Assembly: GCA_963760395.1 (NCBI GenBank)
Contig: CAVXCX010000020.1
Coordinates: 87,345 to 151,344 of the forward strand
Direction of reading: 5' to 3'
Source: an uncultured Gammaproteobacteria bacterium
Lineage (GTDB): Bacteria > Pseudomonadota > Gammaproteobacteria > Steroidobacterales > Woeseiaceae
DNA length: 64,000 nucleotides
Shown here: positions 3,906 to 58,781 of the stretch, in pieces
Layout of the letters: every line of letters begins with the position of its first letter
Numbering within the stretch: the first letter of the stretch is position 1
Made by a program: the position numbers and the translations under genes
The notes under the pieces: generated by a model
Seen by the model: only the letters and a program-made list of their open reading frames with translations
Database searches by the model: none
What the model was told of the DNA's origin: nothing

Positions 3906-4026
3906 CTCATCGAGACCGGTCGAGGGATAGGCCCAACGACGCCGGGGCAACCTTCAGGACTAACCATCCTGAAAAGGTGCCAACTCCTGCGATGCCTTGC
4001 TTAAAGCTTGTGCATCGGTAGATGAG
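3906..4026 (+). promoter_or_regulatory. SAM-I (S-box) riboswitch aptamer
   Basis: The sequence CTCATCGAGACCGGTCGAGGGATAGGCCCAACGACGCCGGGGCAACC...AAAGGTGCCAACTCCTGCGA...GTAGATGAG reproduces the conserved SAM-I core (AUC-AGAG, GAGGGA, GGCCC, GCAACC, GGUGCCAA-UCC). P1 closes as CTCATC/GATGAG. It lies 110 nt upstream of a methionine-biosynthesis gene. Confidence 0.8.
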
Positions 4027-4136
4027 GGTTGCTGCAACACGCCGGGGTACCCGGTTGAAGGGCAGAACATCCCTCCCTTGCGGGCTTCGCAGGGTTCCGA
4101 TGAGACGGTATTGGAATCGACTAGCGGAGACCGACA

Positions 4137-5333
4137 ATGACAGCACCAGCCAGCAAAGCCACTCAAGCCGTTCGGGCGTCCATCGAATCGGACACACAGT
4201 ACGGTGCCGTGGTGCCGCCTCTGCATTTATCCTCCAATTTCGCTTTCGAGGGTTTCGGCGAGAAGCGTCAGTACGATTACACACGGTCCGGTAATCCGAC
4301 GCGCGACGCGCTGGCCGATGCGTTGGCGAATCTGGAGGGCGGTGCCGGAGCAGTAGTGACTTCATCGGGCATGGCGGCACTGACGTTACTAACGCAGCTC
4401 CTCAAGCCTGGCGATGTGATTGTTGCGCCGCACGACTGCTACGGCGGCACATTCCGGCTGTTCGAGCAGCAGTCGAAGAAAGGTCTTTTTGAGGTTCGTT
4501 TTGTAGACCAGACCGACCTCGAGGGTTTGCGCGCGGCCTGCGAAGACGGCCCCGCAATCATCCTGGCCGAGACCCCGTCGAACCCGTTGCTCCGCATCGT
4601 GGATATCGCCGCAATTGCGAATATCGCTTCCGATTGCGGCGCCTTGCTCGCAGTCGACAATACCTTCTTGTCGCCGGCGTTACAGAATCCGATTGAATTC
4701 GGCGCCGACCTGGTTATTCACTCCACCACCAAGTACATCAACGGCCATAGTGACGTTGTTGGCGGATGTGTCGTTGCGGCGACCGAGGAGCTTGCTGAAG
4801 AAATCGCTTACTGGGCCAACTGTATTGGCATCACCGGGGCGCCGTTTGACAGCTTCATGACGCTGCGCGGAATTCGCACCTTGCATCCGCGAATCCGTCA
4901 GCATGAGGAGAGCGCGAGCCTCATTGCCAACCTGCTGGACAAGCATAGCCAGGTTGAGCAGGTCTACTACCCCGGCCTCGATACCCATCCAGGACACGAT
5001 ATAGCCAAGCGGCAGCAGCGTGGCTTTGGCGGCATGATCAGTTTCGAGCTTGAGGGCGGCGAGGCCGCTGTGAGGACCTTTGTCGAGCATCTCCGGTTCT
5101 TCTCGCTGGCCGAGTCGCTGGGCGGTGTAGAAAGTCTCGTTTGCCATCCGCGGTCGATGACGCATGCACCGGTCAATGATGATGCGCTCGCCGCGGCGGG
5201 CATCCGGCCAAACCTGGTCCGTCTCTCGATAGGACTCGAGGCTTCGGAAGACCTCGTCGCCGATCTGCTGAGCGCCCTTGAGGCGGCTGCTTCGCTAGCA
5301 ACGCTGAAACCTGTTGCTGCGGCCTGCGCCTGA
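4137..5333 (+). CDS. Cys/Met-metabolism PLP enzyme (cystathionine gamma-synthase / O-acylhomoserine thiol-lyase type)
   Basis: 398-aa ORF carrying YTRSGNPTRDAL and the PLP-lysine context HSTTKYINGHSD. A GGAG lies 7 nt before the ATG. It is followed by metX. Confidence 0.85.
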   Translation: MTAPASKATQAVRASIESDTQYGAVVPPLHLSSNFAFEGFGEKRQYDYTRSGNPTRDALADALANLEGGAGAVVTSSGMAALTLLTQLLKPGDVIVAPHDCYGGTFRLFEQQSKKGLFEVRFVDQTDLEGLRAACEDGPAIILAETPSNPLLRIVDIAAIANIASDCGALLAVDNTFLSPALQNPIEFGADLVIHSTTKYINGHSDVVGGCVVAATEELAEEIAYWANCIGITGAPFDSFMTLRGIRTLHPRIRQHEESASLIANLLDKHSQVEQVYYPGLDTHPGHDIAKRQQRGFGGMISFELEGGEAAVRTFVEHLRFFSLAESLGGVESLVCHPRSMTHAPVNDDALAAAGIRPNLVRLSIGLEASEDLVADLLSALEAAASLATLKPVAAACA

Positions 5334-5338
5334 CCGAA

Positions 5339-6442
5339 ATGAGTCTTCCGTCGCATCTCCAGGCGCATGTTTCGGCGGACACGCGTTTCCTGCGTGTCGA
5401 GGGCGAGTTTGCCCTCGAGAATGGCGAGCAGCTCAGGGATGTGGACATTGCCTACCGGACATGGGGTGATCCAGCCAATGCGGCAGGTGGCGCGATCCTG
5501 ATTTGCCATGCACTAACGGGGTCCGCCGATGTCGATGCCTGGTGGCCGAACATCATAGGCACAGGAAAGGCCTTCGATCCGGCGAACGACTTCATTATCT
5601 GCTCGAACATTATTGGCAGTTGTTACGGCACGACCGGGCCGGTCAGTATCAAGCCGGGTTCGACGCAGCGCTACCGCGCCGACTTTCCGCGCATTTCGGT
5701 ACGCGACATGGTCGAGCTACAGCGCGTGCTGCTCGATGAGCTCGGAGTGTCCCGCCTGGAACTCGTGACGGGGCCCTCTCTCGGCGGTATGCAAGCGCTT
5801 GAGTGGGCGATCAGTTACCCCGATCGGGTGGACAGCGTCGTGCCCATCGGCGTCGGCGGCCGTCATTCCGCCTGGTGCATAGGTGTGAGCGAGGCTCAGC
5901 GAGCAGCGATCGCGGCCGACCCCAACTGGAATGACGGGTTTTACACCGACGCAGCGCCACCGTCGGATGGTTTGGCGGCAGCTCGCATGATGGCCATCTG
6001 TACGTACCGCAGCTGGGAGAGCTTTGATCGCCGATTTGGCCGCGACAAAAGCGAGGACGAGGAGTACCAGGTTCAGTCCTACCTGCGATACCAGGGCGAC
6101 AAGATTAATGAGCGCTTCGATGCGAATACTTACGTAACGCTGACTCATGCGATGCATACGCACGATCTGTCACGGGGCAGGGGCGAATACCTCGACGTAC
6201 TGGCCTCAATCTCGCAGCCGGCGCTGGTTGTCTCGGTGAGTACAGATGCGCTGTATCCGCCGGAGGAGCAGCAACTGTTAGCTGAGCATCTGCCGGCTTC
6301 CAGCTACGAGGTACTGGAATCGGCGCATGGCCATGACGGGTTCCTGATAGAAACTGAGGAGCTGGGTAAGAAGATCATCCGTTTTCGCAACGCCAACAAG
6401 GCACGTGCGAACCTCAGGGCGGTCAGCTCAGGCAGCGAATAA
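5339..6442 (+). CDS. metX: Homoserine O-acyltransferase (MetX family)
   Basis: 367-aa ORF of the alpha/beta-hydrolase MetX type (HALTG, nucleophile elbow [13 protein letters not shown]-terminal HGHDGFL). Confidence 0.9.
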
Positions 6443-15522: not shown

Positions 15523-15939
15523 ATGAGTCGCCACCACCTCGATGATATTCACTTCGACGAGGAAGAGAATGAGATCAACCTGACGCCGATGCTCGACGTC
15601 GTGTTCATCATGCTCATCTTCTTCATCGTCACCGCCTCGTTTATCAAGGAATCGGGCATTGACGTGAATCGCCCGGATGCACCGGTTACTGAATCCAAGC
15701 CCGAAGATGCGAACATCCTCATAATGATCAGCGCCAACGATGAAATATTTATCGACCGGCGACTGATCGACCCGAGGGCTGTTCGCGCTAACATCGAAAG
15801 GCTGCACGCTGAGAACCCCAAGGGTTCGGTGGTCATTCAGGCCGATATGAAGTCGTCCAACAAGATGCTGGTTGAGGTTATGGATTCCTCACGAAGCGCC
15901 GGCGTTTACAGCATATCAATCGCGGACCGAGGTAATTAG
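15523..15939 (+). CDS. exbD: ExbD/TolR-family protein, copy 1
   Basis: 138-aa ORF with INLTPMLDVVFIMLIFFIV. Confidence 0.88.
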   Translation: MSRHHLDDIHFDEEENEINLTPMLDVVFIMLIFFIVTASFIKESGIDVNRPDAPVTESKPEDANILIMISANDEIFIDRRLIDPRAVRANIERLHAENPKGSVVIQADMKSSNKMLVEVMDSSRSAGVYSISIADRGN

Positions 15940-26549: not shown

Positions 26550-29139
26550 ATGTACCAGTGGCTGCCGGATGCGTTGCAGGGACCTTCGACCGTAATCACT
26601 GCGAATCGTCGACTCGCACGCATTTTGCAGGGCGAATTTGCCCGACAGCAGGTGCGGCGGGGCATCGCCGCCTGGGAAAGTCCGGCAATCTATTCCTGGC
26701 ACGACTGGCTCACGAGAACCTTACAGAGTGTGCCTTCCCAGCAGGAACTACCGACTCGATTGAACGCGCAACAAAGTCAGCTCCTGTGGGAGCGCTGCCT
26801 TGTCAAAGAGATCGGAGAACCGCTGTCAGGTACGGCGAACCTGGTGCGGCTCGCGCGCGACGCCTGGCAGCGCATGGCCGACTGGCAGGTGTCCATCCGG
26901 GAGGTCGCTCGGGCGTCCCAGAGTGACGACCAGCGGTTGTTTGCGGCCATCGCGGGACGTTATCTGGGCATTCTGGAGCGCGAGCACTGGGTGGACGATG
27001 CGGGGCTCGGCGCGCTGGTGGATGGTCTGCTCAGGTCACGGCGCGCAGTCGTCGAGGGGCGCGTAACCTTCGTTGGATTCGATCGCGAACGTCCCCTGGT
27101 TCGCTCGATTAAAGAGGCCCTTTTGGCGAGTGGTTGTGAGGTTTGCTCGGCGCCCACTCGGGAGATTGCACACCCGGTTGGATTGCACTGTTTTGACACG
27201 GTCGAGATGGAAATGCGGGCCGCCGGCGCATGGGCGCGGGCGCGGCTTGAGGAGGCTCCGGGTCAGTCGATCGCAATCATAGCCGGCAACCTTGAGCAAA
27301 GCGCAGAACGTATGACGCACCTCGTGCGTGAGGGGCTGGTGCCGGGCTGGCAGTACGGGTCCGCTTCGGTTGCTGCAGGCGTGAACGTCTCCTATGGCCG
27401 CAAGCTCATCGAGTTTCCGGCGATCTCGATAGCGTTGTTATGGCTCACATGGCTCGTTCGGGATCTTTCCACTACCGAGATAGGCCATCTGCTCCGTACA
27501 CCACTACTTGCGGACGGCTCGCTGGGTGCACGCAGTCGACTTGAGCTCAGGCTGCGAAAGATGCCCGATCGGGACTGGTCTCCGACAATGATTTCTTCGG
27601 CACTGAGGGGACTGGAGAGCGGCAGTGGCGATATTGAATGGCTCAGCCGAGTTGCCGAGCTAACGAAGTCCAGGCGAGAACTAAAGCGGCGCGCATCGCC
27701 TGCGCAATGGGCGGTCTACATAGACGCCGTACTTTCGGCCTGCGGCTGGCCGGGGACCGGTAGCCTTTCGAGTTTCGACTTTCAGCTCATAAATCGCTGG
27801 CGTGATGCCCTGAACGACCTCGCACGACTGGACCTCGTCAGCCCAACCATGGACCTCAAAGGGGCCATTCGGCGTCTTGAGCAAATCGCAGCCGAGGCCA
27901 TATTCCAGCCTGAATCAGACCCGGGTGCGGTGCAGCTAATGGGCCCCCTGGAAGCTTCTGGCGCGGAATTCGACGCGGTCTGGATCAGCGGTCTCTCCGC
28001 GGCGAGTTGGCCACCGTCGGGTAATCCGTCACCGTTGTTGTCGCGGCAGTTGCAGCGTCAGAAGGGCATGCCGGATGCAGACCCGGCCGATACTGTCGAC
28101 TACGCGCAAAGATTATTGTGCATGCTTGGCAGCTCGGCAGAGCATGTCTTATGTAGCTACGCCCTGCATGAAGACGATACGGAGCAGGCACCCAGCGGAC
28201 TTCTTGCGGCGCTGGACGCACAGTCGACAACCGCAGAGGTGGACCCGGGCTGGCATGCTGCGCATCTGGCAAACGAAATGCGCACCGTAAGGGTCGCGGA
28301 ATGCGCGCCACAAATACACGAGAGTGAACAGATTTCGGGCGGCGCCGGCGCGCTACAGCGTCAGCTCAACGATCCAATATCCGCATTCATCGTAGCGCGT
28401 CTCGGCGTGGCGTACCTGCCACCACAGGCAATCGGGCTGCCGGCGCCACTGCGTGGCAACATTATTCATGACGCCTTGCACCAGTTGTACATCGATACGC
28501 CAAGCCAGCAAGAGATTGGCTCGTGGACAGGAAAACCAGTTGCAGATGCGTATCGATAGCGCGGTCAACGCTGCGTTTAGCCGCCATGAACGTAATACCG
28601 ACGACGTGCTTAACCAACTACTCAGATTGGAGCGTGTGCGCGTTGCCGGTCTCCTCAGGCAGTTTGTCACGATGGATGTGAGTCGCGAGGACTTCAACAT
28701 CGCTGCCGTCGAACACCCGATTTCGTTCCAGGAGGCTTCAGTACGCCTGCAGCTGCGAATAGATCGTCTTGACCGTCGCAGCGACGATACGGTCGTGATT
28801 CTCGATTACAAAACGGGCGCGAGAAAGACGCTTCTTGGCAGTGACGGACGGCCCAAAGAAATTCAGCTGATTGTGTATGCGATGGCACTGAAAGCGGCGA
28901 TCTCGGCGGTTGCACTGGTCAATATCGACTCACGTGAAATGGGATTCACTGGTGCCGGTGAAGGCTACACAGATGCCACGACATGGGAGGTGTCGCTGGA
29001 TCAATGGAAGTTACTCGTGCGCGGGGCCTGCCGCGACTTGAGCGACGGGGACGTACGCATCAATGTGCTGCAAGGTCCCAAGGAAGCGCGTCCATTCAAC
29101 TTGTTGAGCCGCTATACGGAATTGTTGCGTGTCGAATAA
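26550..29139 (+). pseudogene. AddB-like PD-(D/E)XK nuclease family DNA-repair protein, read in two frames (frame change near 28520-28540)
   Basis: The 26550..28559 ORF and the 28453..29139 ORF are contiguous in sense (...SQQEIGSW / ENQLQMRIDSAV...). The C-terminal part carries the RecB-type nuclease motif IDRLD...VVILDYKTG. It overlaps the downstream helicase gene by 11 nt. Confidence 0.65.
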
Positions 29140-53221: not shown

Positions 53222-53698
53222 ATGAAAAAACTGCCAATTTTGGGCGCAATTTTGCTGGCGTGGATGATGCTGATGTCGCCGCTTGCGGAGTCTGCGGCAG
53301 CGCCCGGCGAGACACTGGATCTTGCCAACTACGAGGGCAAAGTCGTGGTTCTCGACTTCTGGGCGTCCTGGTGTGTGCCGTGTCGGCGCTCCTTCCCCTG
53401 GCTGAACGAGATGCACAAGAAATATGCCCAGGACGATCTGGTCATTATCGGCGTCAACGTCGATCAGGACCAGGACGATGCGGCTGCGTTCCTCGACAAA
53501 TACCCCGCCCAGTTCCGAATTAGCTACGACGCAAACGGTGTGCTGGCCAAGGCTTATGGCGTTCGAGGCATGCCGAGTTCGTTTGTCATTGGTCGCGACG
53601 GTCAGCTGGCAGCCCAGCACCTTGGTTTTAAAGTGAAGCGACAGGACGAATACGAAGCGGCAATAGTCGCTGCCCTCCAGCAGGAGATATCTAAATGA
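53222..53698 (+). CDS. TlpA-family periplasmic thiol:disulfide oxidoreductase
   Basis: 158-aa ORF with a signal peptide and the thioredoxin motif FWASWCVPCRRSFP. Confidence 0.88.
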   Translation: MKKLPILGAILLAWMMLMSPLAESAAAPGETLDLANYEGKVVVLDFWASWCVPCRRSFPWLNEMHKKYAQDDLVIIGVNVDQDQDDAAAFLDKYPAQFRISYDANGVLAKAYGVRGMPSSFVIGRDGQLAAQHLGFKVKRQDEYEAAIVAALQQEISK

Positions 53699-53913
53699 AC
53701 AAGACGATTGTCATCGCAGCAACGACGCTGCTCATTGCTACCGGATGCTCTTCGATGGGTGTTGAGCCCTGGGAGCGCGATGTACTGGCAAAGGCTGAGA
53801 TGCAGCTGACCACCGACGAACTCGAGGCTGCGACGGATGACCACATCTATTTCAGTAAAGAGGCGTCCAGCGGCGGGCGTGGATTTGGCGGCGGCGGCTG
53901 CGGCTGTAACTGA
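53695..53913 (+). CDS. DUF4266-type small lipoprotein with C-terminal GGGGCGCN
   Basis: 72-aa ORF with lipobox LIATGCS and VEPWERDVLAKAEM. It has an ATGA overlap with the tlpA-like gene. Confidence 0.7.
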   Translation: MNKTIVIAATTLLIATGCSSMGVEPWERDVLAKAEMQLTTDELEAATDDHIYFSKEASSGGRGFGGGGCGCN

Positions 53914-53923
53914 GGGCATACGA

Positions 53924-55232
53924 ATGAGCAAACAAGACAATCGATCGATTTCAGCGGCGCTCGCCACGGCAACATGCACCTTGTTGGGTTCCGGCGTTGT
54001 GCAACCCGCGGTTGCGCAGGAAGAACCGGACTGGGACTTCAATACCTCTCTGCTGTATTACGGGGAGGACGGCGACCGGGTTAAAGATTTCAGCGTCAGT
54101 GCTATTGCACGACGCATGTTCGTTGATGACCGCTTCCTGACCCTGAGCCTGACGGTTGACGGTCTGACCGGTGCCACGCCGAGTGGCGCGATTCGTCAGG
54201 ACGTGCCGCAGACCTTCACGCGCCCATCCGGCAATGCCGCTTATACCGTTCCAGGCGGTGTATTGCCGCTCGATGACACGTTCAAGGACACGCGAGTGGC
54301 AATCAGCGGCGGCTGGCAACAGCCGATCGGCGAGACCAGCCTGATCAATGTTGGCGCCAGTGCTTCCAAGGAATACGATTACATGCACCTCGGGGTAAAC
54401 GCCAAGTACGCCCGTGACTTCAACCAGCGAAATACCACCCTGTCGGCGGGCATTGCACTGTCAATGGATTCCCTGGATCCGGTCGGCGGCGCACCGACGC
54501 CGCTAACGCCGATGCTTGATGTTGGCGATACCAGCAACAGGTTGGGCGACCAGGACAAGGACGTGCTGGACGTGGTTTTCGGCGTGACACAGGTAATAAT
54601 CGCGAAACCTCGTCGTGCAGGCGAACTACTCGTACAGTATGTCGGACGGCTACCTTACGGATCCGTACAAGGTGTTGAGCCTGGTCGATGGCACCACAGG
54701 CGATACGCTGCTGCGAACGTTGACGCCCGGCGTTGAAGGGCCTTCTCACCAATACCTGTTCGAGAACCGACCGGATGAGCGCACCAAGCACAGCCTCTAC
54801 GGCCAGGCAAAGTACTACATGAACGGCAAGGTACTCGACGCGTCCTATCGCTACATGACGGATGACTGGGATATTGACTCTCACACGGTCGACCTGCGAT
54901 ACCGGATCCCGTTCGGTACGGACAGCTATATTGAGCCACACCTGCGTTTCTACACGCAGACTGAGGCTGAGTTCTATCAGCTGAGTATTTCGGATGCGCA
55001 GCCGCTACCGAGCTTCGCATCGGCGGATTATCGTCTCGGCAATTTCGACGCTATTACGGCAGGCGTGAAGTATGGCTGGCGAACGCGCAACGACAATGAG
55101 ATGAGTCTGCGTGTCGAGGCCTATCGTCAGACGGGCACGGTGCCTGGCAGCCAGATTATCGGCAACCAGGCGTCGCGGGATAATTACCCGGACCTGAACG
55201 CCGTAATCGTGCAGTTCGGTTATCGCTTCTAG
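53924..55232 (+). pseudogene. DUF3570-type protein (putative outer-membrane beta-barrel) read in two frames; frame change near 54596-54602
   Basis: The ATG 53924 product has a signal peptide (..PAVA/QEE). The sequence continues across frames (...FGVTQVI / LVVQANYSYSMSDGYLTDPYK...). The C-terminus ...VQFGYRF is OMP-like. Confidence 0.65.
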
Positions 55233-55302
55233 GGGTCCCAGGCAGGCGGATGATATCCGCCTGGAACTGGCCGAAGATGCCTGGCATGGCCGATTTCAGG
55301 CC

Positions 55303-56130
55303 ATGGGGAGCCCTTGCGAGCTGGTTTGTGAGGCGCCGAAAAGAGCGGATGCTCTCAGGCTTACAGAACGCGTCGCGGCCGAGGCCTGGCGTATCGAGGA
55401 GAAATTCAGCCGCTACCTCGAGGGCAATATCGTCGCCCGGATTAACGCCGCAAGCGGTAAGGCTATCGAAGTTGACGAGGAAACCGCGGATCTGCTGGAT
55501 TTCGCGGTAACACTTTACGACCTCAGCGAGCATCGATTCGATATCACCTCGGGCGTACTGCGACGTGTTTGGCGTTTCGACGGTAGCGACTGCATTCCAG
55601 GCGTCTCTGAGGTCGAGGCGGTGATGCAGCTGGTCGGGTGGCACCGGGTCAGTTGGCAACGACCGTATATGCAGATGCCGGCAGGCATGGAAATAGATCT
55701 CGGTGGAATCGGCAAGGAATACGCGGTTGACCGCTGCGCGGCCCTGATTCGGGAGGAGGGGGGCGATCCCTGCCTGGTCAATTTCGGCGGCGACCTGGTC
55801 GCCACGGAAGCACCTCATCGCCGACGACACTGGAAAGTGGCGATCGAAGGTGACAGTGCTGCGGAAGCTGACCGGATCGTCAACCTCAAGCAAGGCGCAC
55901 TTGCCACCAGCGGCGACGCTCGACGATTCCTGCTCAAGGACGGCAGACGTTACAGTCACATTCTGGACCCGACGACCGGTTGGCCTGTACCTGACGCACC
56001 CAGATCGATTACGATTGTGGCCGATACCTGCGTAGAGGCAGGTACAGTCAGTACCCTGGCAATGCTGAAGGGGGCTGCCGCCGAGGACTTTCTCAAGGCA
56101 CAAACGGCGGCCTTCTGGTGCAGACGTTAA
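55303..56130 (+). CDS. apbE: FAD:protein FMN transferase (ApbE family); true start probably upstream of the first ATG
   Basis: 275-aa ORF with AMGSPCEL, DLGGIGKEYAVD, ATSGDARRF and HILDPTTGWP. The frame stays open and protein-like back to 55207, but without a canonical start codon. Confidence 0.85.
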   Translation: MGSPCELVCEAPKRADALRLTERVAAEAWRIEEKFSRYLEGNIVARINAASGKAIEVDEETADLLDFAVTLYDLSEHRFDITSGVLRRVWRFDGSDCIPGVSEVEAVMQLVGWHRVSWQRPYMQMPAGMEIDLGGIGKEYAVDRCAALIREEGGDPCLVNFGGDLVATEAPHRRRHWKVAIEGDSAAEADRIVNLKQGALATSGDARRFLLKDGRRYSHILDPTTGWPVPDAPRSITIVADTCVEAGTVSTLAMLKGAAAEDFLKAQTAAFWCRR

Positions 56131-56320: not shown

Positions 56321-56845
56321 ATGTTTGTCGAACTCCCCGAGAATCTCGTAATGATAGCGGCAGCGTTCTTGCTGGGCCTGCTGCTGGCGACCGTTGTTTC
56401 CTCTATTACGTCTGGCAATCGGAGCAAGAAACGCGATCCTCGAGACGACCGTATCCGGTCCCTCGAAGCCGAACTTCGCGTATCCCAAAGCGCGGCAACC
56501 AAGGCTCAGGAAGAACTCGAAGGCCTTGATGAAGAGCTTAAGGAAACGACGATCGGCATCGAGCGTCGCGATAATGTGATTAGCGAGCAGCAGTCCAAGC
56601 TTGATCGTGTATCCAGAGATCTGAAAGAGTCGGTCATGAAGACGCGGGAACTGCGCTCTGAACTGACTGAGCGTGCTACTGAAAATGTGCATGCGGAAGC
56701 CAAGATCAGGGAGGTCGAGACGGAACTGTCAGTAGCGCAGGCCTCACAGGACCTTCTCGCCACTGGCGTGCTTGACTACAAGTTTGTGCCCGACGAAGAT
56801 GACCCTGACGGCGAACAAGCCGAAGTGAGTGGGGCCACTACCTGA
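56321..56845 (+). CDS. Membrane-anchored coiled-coil protein of unknown function
   Basis: 174-aa ORF with one N-terminal TM segment, a basic cluster, a long heptad-like acidic/basic region, and a C-terminus ...EVSGATT. Confidence 0.6.
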   Translation: MFVELPENLVMIAAAFLLGLLLATVVSSITSGNRSKKRDPRDDRIRSLEAELRVSQSAATKAQEELEGLDEELKETTIGIERRDNVISEQQSKLDRVSRDLKESVMKTRELRSELTERATENVHAEAKIREVETELSVAQASQDLLATGVLDYKFVPDEDDPDGEQAEVSGATT

Positions 56846-56883: not shown

Positions 56884-57654
56884 TTGGCTGGGCTGGTTCT
56901 GCTTCTGTCGAGCGCCTGCTCAAAACCCTACCTTGGGGTCAAGGTGCCATTCGTCGCGACCTGGAATGGCAGTCCGATCGCCTGCGCCGACGAAGGGATC
57001 GCTCTGAGTGATCTGCGGCTATATGTTTCCTCCCTGCAGCTGCTTGACGCGGCTGGTATTGCCCACGACCTGCAATTGCACACTGACATTCCCTGGCAGC
57101 AGCCGGATCTGGCGCTGATCGACCTCGAGAATGGGCAGGATGCCTGTCGGGACGGCACGCCAGGGTTGTTCGCGTACCTGGTCGGCGGCGTGCCGCCAGG
57201 TGAATACAAGGGGCTAAGATTCACCGTCGGCGTGCCTTTTGAACGTAACCATGCCAACCCCCTGATTGCCGAGGCACCGTTAGACGATCCGGCCATGCAC
57301 TGGCACTGGCGCTCCGGCTACAAATTCCTGCGCGCGGGCGTCAGGACGCAAGACGATGGTTTCTGGATGCATATGGGTAGCGCCGGCTGCCAGGGGACCG
57401 TCAGGGATATCAGCGGCTGCCGCTTTCCGAATCGCGTTACCGTTGAACTCCACGACTTTTCACCTAACAGCGATTCAATCGCTATCGATCTGAAGGCGCT
57501 GTTTGATGGTGTGAACTTCGATGACGGCCTACCCGGTGATTGCTCGTCAGGACCTGCAGAGTCTGCCTGCGTTGCCCCGTTCGCCGCACTGGGAATAGAC
57601 TTTGAGACCGGCACAACAAAAGGGCGACAGAACGTATTTTCGACCTATCGATGA
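56884..57654 (+). CDS. mbnP: MbnP-family copper-binding (lipo)protein
   Basis: 256-aa ORF with LLSSAC lipobox-like N-terminus, HWHWRSGYKFLR and multiple conserved-looking Cys. Its stop overlaps the start of the di-haem partner (ATGA). The TTG start is uncertain because the signal peptide is very short. Confidence 0.65.
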   Translation: MAGLVLLLSSACSKPYLGVKVPFVATWNGSPIACADEGIALSDLRLYVSSLQLLDAAGIAHDLQLHTDIPWQQPDLALIDLENGQDACRDGTPGLFAYLVGGVPPGEYKGLRFTVGVPFERNHANPLIAEAPLDDPAMHWHWRSGYKFLRAGVRTQDDGFWMHMGSAGCQGTVRDISGCRFPNRVTVELHDFSPNSDSIAIDLKALFDGVNFDDGLPGDCSSGPAESACVAPFAALGIDFETGTTKGRQNVFSTYR

Positions 57655-58781
57655 GAAACGTACTCCTGGCTTGCGGTGTCGCCGCCGTCCTCGCAATGGT
57701 GTTCTGGTGGCTGCAACGCGAACCCGCCTACGAATGGCGCCTCCCGGCTGACGTTCCAGCGCCATTGGTTCCTGCGGATAATCCGATGTCAGCGACAAAG
57801 GTGCAGCTTGGCCGATGGTTGTTCTATGACACACGCCTGTCTGGCAATGGCAGCATGTCCTGCGCGAGTTGCCATATCCAGGCCCTGGCGTTTACCGATG
57901 GCAAGGCGCGCTCGATCGGTTCCACTGGCGAGGTTCACCCTCGTGCTTCGATGAGTCTCGTTAATGTCGCGTACGCGAGTCGACTGACATGGGCAAACCC
58001 GCTACTGGATCGCCTGGAAGACCAGGCTTTAACGCCGCTACTCGGTGACAGTCCGATTGAAATGGGTTTCGGAAACCACGCCGATGAATTTGCAGTCTTA
58101 CTGGAGAGTGACCCCAGCTATGCCGCGTTAACCAGGGCGGCCTTTTCAGGCGATGAGAATCCCTATTCGCTGCTCAATGGTGTTCGCGCGATTTCCGCAT
58201 TCGTTCGCAGTATTGTCAGCTTTGACACGCCCTATGATCGTTACATGGCAGGGGACGACGACGCTCTTGGCGAGGCGGCCATGCGCGGCATGGATCTGTT
58301 CTTTTCTGAAAAACTCGAGTGCTTCCATTGTCACGGGGGCTTCAATTTTTCAGACAGCACTACGCACGCAAACACACGTGTTGATCCCGTCGGTTTTCAC
58401 AACACCGGCCTTTACAATGTGGGCGGCGAGGGTGCTTACCCTGAGGACAACACCGGTCTATTCGATATGACAGGCGAGCGTCGCGACATGGGTCGATTCA
58501 AGGCTCCCTCGTTGCGAAATATCGCGGTCACCGCGCCTTACATGCACGACGGCAGCGTCGCTACTCTCGGCGATGCGATCTCACATTACTCAAGAGGCGG
58601 ACGCCTCATAGAACAGGGTGAGTATGCAGGTGACGGACGGCTTAGCCCGTACAAGTCTGAGTTTGTAACTGGCTTCGAGCTCTCGGATGAGCAGAGCAGG
58701 GACCTCGTCGCATTCCTGGAATCCCTGACCGATGCAACGGTCTTGTCGGATGAGCGTTTCTCTAATCCGCACCTTGATTAG
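57651..58781 (+). CDS. mbnH: MbnH-family di-haem cytochrome c peroxidase/MauG-like enzyme
   Basis: 376-aa ORF with two CxxCH sites (CASCH, CFHCH) and the CCP/MauG-like motifs FKAPSLRNIAVTAPYMHDGS. Confidence 0.75.
   Translation: MRNVLLACGVAAVLAMVFWWLQREPAYEWRLPADVPAPLVPADNPMSATKVQLGRWLFYDTRLSGNGSMSCASCHIQALAFTDGKARSIGSTGEVHPRASMSLVNVAYASRLTWANPLLDRLEDQALTPLLGDSPIEMGFGNHADEFAVLLESDPSYAALTRAAFSGDENPYSLLNGVRAISAFVRSIVSFDTPYDRYMAGDDDALGEAAMRGMDLFFSEKLECFHCHGGFNFSDSTTHANTRVDPVGFHNTGLYNVGGEGAYPEDNTGLFDMTGERRDMGRFKAPSLRNIAVTAPYMHDGSVATLGDAISHYSRGGRLIEQGEYAGDGRLSPYKSEFVTGFELSDEQSRDLVAFLESLTDATVLSDERFSNPHLD

Follow-up and report, generated by a model that had tools for sequence, protein, structure and literature searches.

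ApbE enzymes recognize target motifs defined as D-x-x-[S/T]-G-A-[S/T], and a seven-residue linear tag is sufficient as a target (PMC12052999). By mining the neighborhoods of 'orphan' apbE genes, Méheust, Huang, Rivera-Lugo, Banfield and Light (eLife 2021, PMC8238504) identified the DUF3570 protein as an ApbE substrate. Co-expression of the C. luteolum DUF3570 protein with its cognate ApbE in E. coli gave a UV-fluorescent band, and flavinylation was lost only when both [S/T]GA[S/T] motifs carried Ser-to-Ala changes; the protein had been truncated to remove its signal peptide, and most of it was found in the pellet of lysed cells (PMC8238504). The same study counted clusters encoding ApbE, DUF3570, a thioredoxin-like protein and DUF4266 (secreted, small in size and bearing a conserved CXC motif), 227 of them with DsbD and 316 without, and put forward a hybrid thiol/flavin chain of electron transfer whose function was unknown (PMC8238504). 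Here, we analyzed a stretch of 64,000 nucleotides (contig CAVXCX010000020.1, positions 87,345 to 151,344) from an uncultured gammaproteobacterium of the Woeseiaceae, hereafter the window, which contains a DUF3570 gene with an apbE gene next to it. The window very probably holds a four-gene DUF3570 flavinylation operon of the DsbD-less form, in which the sequence DGLTGAT would be the ApbE site on a predicted barrel protein and one FMN would be carried by T85.

The system is already known, and the window provides a further member of it, in Woeseiaceae. An earlier note on this DNA had presented DUF3570 as a possible new class of covalently flavinylated protein; that class was published in 2021, and the co-expression experiments which the note proposed had been done on a homologue (PMC8238504). 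The note's interpretation is partly supported, in that its biochemical reading, namely a conserved ApbE target, an adjacent apbE and an export signal, is right. What might still be new are the barrel prediction, the place of the flavin and an ApbE without a leader, none of which appears in the papers found that name DUF3570. Beyond the 2021 study, the literature found for DUF3570, DUF4266 or PF12094 consisted of two preprints, one on macroalgal genomics and unrelated, the other on a sorting signal, with a passing mention only, and DUF3570 is not among the domains analyzed in a 2024 AlphaFold survey of flavinylated domains (PMC11334425).

The DGLTGAT motif and its gene cluster

The codons GAC GGT CTG ACC GGT GCC ACG at window 54158-54178 (+) encode DGLTGAT in frame within the open reading frame (ORF) 53837-54736, so that both the sequence and the reading frame given for the motif earlier were confirmed. 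The product of this ORF matches the Pfam DUF3570 (PF12094) profile over positions 2-232 of 427 (E 4e-51). Judged from an intact orthologue, P0001, the true start of the gene is 53924; with this start the motif is numbered D79-G-L-T-G-A-T85, and the predicted acceptor T85 is the codon ACG at 54176-54178. The motif fits D-x-x-[S/T]-G-A-[S/T], ending in an acceptor Ser/Thr. Two features are distinguished here:

54158-54178, + strand: putative ApbE flavinylation motif D79-G-L-T-G-A-T85, on the evidence of its sequence, family conservation and the C. luteolum precedent (PMC8238504)
54179-54193, + strand: degenerate tandem half-site P86-S-G-A-I90, with G88 and A89 nearly invariant in the family and Ile at the acceptor position

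Taken by itself, with family data set aside, the motif is only mildly improbable. Two matches to D..[ST]GA[ST] were observed in the six-frame translation of the window, where composition predicts 0.68, and within the approximately 65 long ORFs taken as likely genes the DUF3570 copy was the one match, where 0.15 is expected (0.003 per 435-aa protein). The other six-frame match, DSVTGAS at 15675-15695 (-), runs antisense to an ExbD gene (15523-15939, +) and belongs to no plausible protein, which agrees with the earlier statement that no other protein of the window has the full motif.

The motif can be regarded as non-random because it is conserved across the family. An exhaustive HMMER search (50%-identity representative library) yielded 1,935 relatives, and conservation was counted in an alignment of 132 full-length representatives with 34-63% identity to P0001. 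The aligned segment reads D-x-L-[T/S]-G-A-[S/T]-P-x-G-A, with G83 and G88 kept in all 132 family members, the acceptor [ST]85 in 131, D79 in 130, [TS]82 in 127, A89 in 125 and A84 in 111 (Ser in 12). The conservation check that the earlier note had proposed thus finds a near-invariant segment, and its caution that seven residues may match by chance is answered by this near-invariance in 132 diverse family members. Of the 381 DUF3570 proteins gathered, 367 conform to [ST]G[AS][ST] at the first site, and no further conserved [ST]GA[ST] was found elsewhere in the family alignment. DGLTGAT is almost certainly the flavin attachment site for the neighboring ApbE.

The account of the motif given earlier holds for this first site; what it overlooked is an optional second site in tandem. 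Some family members, e.g., P0215, P0235, and P0264, have a complete second motif directly after the first (DSITGASPTGAS, DSLSGASPSGAS, DSITGATPSGAT). The full tandem [ST]GA[ST]-P-[ST]GA[ST] is present in 33 of the 381 proteins, SGAI in 144, and position 90 is V, T, L, I or A across the family. Since the tandem second site of the window protein is SGAI, a form common to this protein and its clade, with Ile at the acceptor position, the window protein would carry at most one FMN. We infer that the tandem site may correspond to the second motif of Méheust et al.

Four genes on the same strand make up the cluster at 53222-56130: a tlpA-like gene, DUF4266, DUF3570 and apbE. The apbE gene starts 70 nt past the DUF3570 stop, directly after it as the earlier note had described. 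The partners of the DUF3570 gene, which is itself listed in the following section, are:

53222-53698, + strand: TlpA/ResA-like periplasmic thioredoxin-fold protein with an N-terminal signal peptide and WCVPC (CxxC); Pfam Redoxin (9e-25), AhpC-TSA and Thioredoxin_8; NCBIfam ResA/TlpA/DsbE-like
53695-53913, + strand: DUF4266 small lipoprotein with lipobox LIATG/C and a Gly-rich C-terminal tail ending CGC-N (CxC); Pfam DUF4266 (1.3e-22)
55303-56130, + strand: ApbE-family FAD:protein FMN transferase, 275 aa from the first ATG, without a signal peptide; Pfam ApbE (PF02424) 1.4e-64, profile 1-258/266

A locus search with an 11-sequence alignment gave 80 loci, almost all from Woeseiaceae, Steroidobacteraceae or Colwellia. 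The order TlpA>DUF4266>DUF3570>ApbE was found in most of the 84 related loci, and those without an adjacent ApbE include contigs ending at or just past DUF3570. Among more distant loci, L085-L088 and L091 show the same order, and L093 has DUF4266>DUF3570>ApbE without TlpA; the distant contigs L089 and L090 are too short to show ApbE. Furthermore, the C-terminal GGGGCGCN of the window DUF4266 protein is identical in L086-L088.

The interrupted reading frame and the alternative readings

The DUF3570 reading frame is broken in the window, a fact that the earlier note overlooked. The gene consists of the following parts:

53924-54597, + strand: N-terminal 225 codons of DUF3570 up to the frameshift; residues 1-32 signal peptide, then predicted barrel strands 1-8
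54595-54600, + strand: frameshift site with an extra A at 54598; GTAATAATCG here, GTCAT-ATCG in L001
54599-55232, + strand: C-terminal 210 codons of DUF3570 plus stop, in the +1 frame; predicted barrel strands 9-16, ending ...GYRF

Consequently, no single ORF of the window gives a full-length PF12094 match, which is split over two overlapping ORFs, the second of them (54615-55232) matching profile positions 238-427 of 427 (E 1.5e-67). The locus L001, contig JBATIU010000458.1 of a metagenome-assembled genome of Woeseiaceae (Gammaproteobacteria), is 98.4% identical to the window region over 11.5 kb and encodes the intact 435-aa DUF3570 protein P0001. Without the extra A, the window product has 435 aa as well and a single difference from P0001 (G145A). 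The DUF3570 codons of the two sequences differ by 14 synonymous changes and 1 non-synonymous change, which shows that the gene is under purifying selection; downstream of the shift the counts are 6 and 0, and the shifted frame of 210 codons downstream of 54598 is free of stops. These observations suggest that the insertion is either very recent or artefactual. A programmed frameshift was rejected, since the gene is uninterrupted in every relative.

Two alternatives to the flavinylation reading concern the motif and the gene that carries it. The locus might be a pseudogene, the insertion being real, the barrel not made and the motif a relic on a truncated, non-functional product. The insertion is indeed present in the sequence as given, it does not lie within any long homopolymer, and it is the only coding one of four indels that separate the window from L001 over 11.5 kb, a pattern expected of true strain variation. 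Nevertheless, the ratio of synonymous to non-synonymous differences, including those past the shift, and the stop-free shifted frame argue against this reading, and the gene is uninterrupted in 84 of 84 related loci. In addition, a second, unrelated gene of the window, for an AddB-like PD-(D/E)XK nuclease at 26550-29139 (+), is likewise split, into the ORFs 26550-28559 and 28453-29139 in different frames; its Teredinibacter plasmid homologue is a single 872-aa protein, to whose residues 14-659 and 688-849 the two window ORFs align. Two frameshifts within 64 kb suggest indel errors in the assembly, and we rate an assembly artefact as the probable origin of the extra A, likelier than a real pseudogene, which we consider unlikely. 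The other alternative is that the seven residues reflect chance or a purely structural role, as the Gly/Ala-rich end of a beta-strand, and are not flavinylated. The shortness of the pattern speaks for it, given the roughly 0.15 matches expected per window proteome. However, the Asp, the Gly and the acceptor Ser/Thr are almost invariant in 132 divergent homologues, apbE is adjacent in nearly every locus, and a homologue is flavinylated at such motifs (PMC8238504), so that we hold this explanation to be highly improbable.

The predicted barrel and flavin position and the leaderless ApbE

The DUF3570 protein carries an export signal, as the earlier description of it as secreted implied, and its description as probably an outer-membrane protein is supported by several predictions. 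An AlphaFold model of P0001 built on a 95-sequence alignment had a mean pLDDT of 93.2 and a pTM of 0.85. In this model, residues 9-22 are helical, corresponding to the signal peptide, and are followed by approximately 16 long antiparallel strands. The connections after even-numbered strands comprise 2-5 residues, and several of those after odd-numbered strands are long (87-115, 185-209, 243-284, 346-373, 405-423). The strands show a dyad alternation of hydrophobic and polar residues, as in a barrel with a polar lumen. P0001 ends in ...GYRF, with a terminal Phe, and F or W is the last residue in most of the relatives checked. A Foldseek search against the PDB gave 527 matches with E ≤ 0.001, of which the best 50 were all outer-membrane beta-barrels; the matches listed include PqqU, OccAB1, AlgE, OmpG, FadL and TonB-dependent receptors. 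The similarity is generic, with query TM-scores of 0.3-0.43 and identities of at most 12% among the best 50 of 527. Together, these predictions support an outer-membrane beta-barrel of about 16 strands.

The orientation of the barrel was obtained by counting back from the C-terminal strand, which was taken as ending in the periplasm. Strand parity in the model then places strand 3 (residues 71-86) as running from the periplasmic turn 66-70 toward the long loop 87-115. Its outward-facing set consists of L72, L74, L76, V78, then G80, T82 and A84, and its inward-facing set of T73, S75, T77, D79, L81, G83 and T85. We infer that T85, and with it D79, would face the lumen close to where strand 3 ends on the extracellular side, past the hydrophobic belt, which is the predicted answer to the question of barrel side that the earlier note had raised. 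Invariant polar residues on strands and adjoining loops (E48, R124, E150, D152, R282, R309, W315, R341, Q345, D368 and R370) may line the same cavity.

The linked ApbE resembles T. maritima TM1553 (1VRM, E 9e-34) and V. cholerae ApbE (6NXI, E 1e-24) in the PDB. RYSHILDPTTG and ATSGD are kept in the alignment with both, and the catalytic His corresponds to that of V. cholerae RYSHIIDPTTG. Among 71 DUF3570-linked ApbEs, H219, TSGD and D132-x-GGIGK are invariant. The absence of a signal peptide from this ApbE escaped the earlier note. In the window, the frame is closed by a stop at 55204-55206, 32 codons upstream of the ATG, so that no leader fits, and the ApbEs of relatives have only a hydrophilic N-terminal extension of 22-29 residues. 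With signal peptides judged by hydropathy alone, without a dedicated predictor, the median maximal 10-residue hydropathy was 0.54 for ApbE N-termini versus 2.68, 2.67 and 1.97 for the TlpA, DUF4266 and DUF3570 leaders of the same loci. Nearly all ApbE N-termini (67/68) were below 2.2, and ten further ApbE ORFs were almost without an N-terminal extension. More than 80 loci were examined, distant ones included, and in none of them did ApbE have a secretion or lipoprotein signal. Neither the window (55207-55302) nor its nearest relatives have an ATG, GTG or TTG ahead of the Met in AMGSPCE. Yet the in-frame codons preceding this Met (RLELAEDAWHGRFQA) look like the extension at the N-terminus of the relatives' ApbE, so a non-canonical ApbE start is possible.

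Export of the precursor may follow its modification by this ApbE; alternatively, this enzyme enters the periplasm by an unrecognized route, or another ApbE acts. On the first account, the leaderless enzyme would flavinylate the DUF3570 precursor in the cytoplasm, and the unfolded chain bearing FMN would then pass through Sec and be inserted by BAM, whereas the alternative is modification in the periplasm, as in NqrC and RnfG. The hydrophilic ApbE N-termini, the recurrence of leaderless ApbE in distant loci and the upstream in-frame stop of the window all favor the cytoplasm. If its placement is correct, T85 at the extracellular end of the folded barrel would be beyond the reach of ApbE, which would have to act on the unfolded chain. 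Modification before folding also fits the acceptance of a seven-residue linear tag by ApbE and the flavinylation in E. coli of the C. luteolum construct truncated of its signal peptide, found mostly in the pellet (PMC8238504); moreover, cytosolic ApbEs are known, serving cytosolic substrates (PMC12052999). On the other side, the genome may have a further apbE elsewhere whose product is secreted, and hydropathy is the sole basis of the signal-peptide calls. There is also no known precedent for Sec export of a flavinylated chain, and this counts against modification in the cytoplasm, an account that we entertain as possible but hold somewhat less probable than not.

The flavinylation reading itself would proceed as follows. 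ApbE would move FAD's FMN moiety onto the T85 hydroxyl in a phosphoester bond, and DUF3570 would be exported via Sec to form an outer-membrane barrel with a polar, highly conserved lumen; from the model, FMN would be installed on the unfolded chain before the barrel folds. From the gene context and the 2021 proposal, reducing equivalents might originate at a DsbD/CcdA of the inner membrane, encoded elsewhere, and reach the TlpA-like CxxC protein, going on from its CxxC to the CxC of the DUF4266 lipoprotein, to the flavin and to a further acceptor. The +2 Ser of the DUF4266 lipoprotein suggests sorting to the outer membrane by the E. coli rule. A bolder version, which we consider doubtful, has the FMN on the lumen face near the extracellular rim, installed on the precursor by the leaderless cytoplasmic ApbE, and the barrel serving as a flavin-based outer-membrane electron conduit fed by a TlpA/DUF4266 thiol relay.

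Several points weigh against the flavinylation reading or parts of it. The DUF3570 gene is frameshifted in the window. The flavinylation experiments concern the C. luteolum homologue only; likewise, the matching of the two C. luteolum sites with the tandem arrangement is drawn from other family members. The linked ApbE is without a signal peptide although its substrate is exported, and the placement of T85 depends on strand parity and residue alternation. No match to DsbD (PF02683) was found among approximately 59 of the 66 long ORFs scanned in the 64-kb window, which is the reason for regarding the cluster as the DsbD-less form; no DsbD was found either among the called genes of L001-L004, L085-L088, L091 and L093. 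Finally, the Asp of the 'TAD' element of T. maritima and V. cholerae ApbE is Gly247 here, invariant in 71/71, with T251 kept. This feature is:

56035-56058, + strand: ApbE residues 245-252, EAGTVSTL, with Gly in place of the 'T-A-D' Asp

In T. pallidum Ftp structures, the Asp of the C-terminal T-A-D-x-x-x-T element is a Mg2+ ligand.

Neighboring genes and comparison with described systems

Several observations were made around the cluster and its relatives. In the distant locus L092, the family member P0173 (6741-8290) keeps DALTGAT and adjoins DUF4266, with neither ApbE nor a thioredoxin-like gene adjacent; its modifying enzyme must therefore be encoded elsewhere. In L085, an uncalled DUF4266 gene lies at approximately 3990-4215 (…SLTGCSVLQTQPW…GGGCGCN), between the thioredoxin and DUF3570 genes, so that published counts of clusters lacking DUF4266 may be underestimates. 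An MsrP/MsrQ-like pair (Oxidored_molyb and Ferric_reduct) at 4644-6187 (-) in L091 is divergent from the TlpA-DUF4266-DUF3570-ApbE operon there, and this neighbor may hint at a role in envelope oxidative repair. Downstream of apbE in the window, 56321-56845 (+) encodes a 174-aa protein with an N-terminal hydrophobic segment, otherwise charged and coiled-coil-like, with a weak MscS_porin match; its gene directly follows apbE in about 28 of the 84 loci. Further downstream, 56884-58781 (+) encodes an MbnP-family copper-binding protein (TIGR04052, 1e-60) and an MbnH di-heme MauG-like enzyme (TIGR04039, 4e-146). These were rejected as members of the system, as genes for them come after the cluster in no more than about 14 of the 84 loci, and they probably form an independent module.

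The locus raises the questions of what role the system has, how a flavin at the outer end would be wired to the periplasm, and how a leaderless ApbE modifies an exported substrate. Answers could reveal a flavin-based electron route across the outer membrane in widespread sediment bacteria.

Compared with the described systems, the window is closest to that of C. luteolum, whose DUF3570 (ABB24424.1) and ApbE (ABB24423.1) share with it the PF12094 domain, the [S/T]GA[S/T] target motif and the adjacent apbE, together with the thioredoxin-like protein and the CXC protein DUF4266 as cluster partners. Unlike the C. luteolum protein with its two functional Ser sites, the window protein has one Thr site and a degenerate SGAI, and the window further differs in having no DsbD nearby, a leaderless ApbE and a frameshifted DUF3570 copy. 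DUF2271, from the same 2021 study, likewise emerged from 'orphan' apbE neighborhoods and has a conserved [S/T]GA[S/T], but it differs in being a small, soluble domain that has one site only and other gene partners. The FMN-binding domains of NqrC, RnfG and NosR bear the same motif as DUF3570, with FMN phosphoester-linked to its last residue, and are also extracytosolic substrates. They are, however, FMN_bind folds of small size, soluble or anchored in the inner membrane, and the ApbE that modifies them is a periplasmic lipoprotein, whereas DUF3570 is a predicted barrel of about 16 strands, and there is no relation between them in sequence or fold. The cytoplasmic ApbE of Klebsiella pneumoniae (PMC12052999) has no signal peptide, as here, but its substrate is the cytoplasmic fumarate reductase, whereas the only evident substrate here is an exported protein.

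A functional analogy only can be drawn with the MtrAB/MtrCAB porin-cytochrome conduits, in which a redox cofactor is placed within an outer-membrane beta-barrel and could in principle let electrons cross this membrane, the hemes being on a separate decaheme protein that runs through a 26-strand porin. In DUF3570, by comparison, the barrel itself would bear one FMN in covalent linkage, and electron transfer across the membrane is hypothetical; if true, such a conduit would be a cytochrome-free counterpart of the porin-cytochrome conduits.

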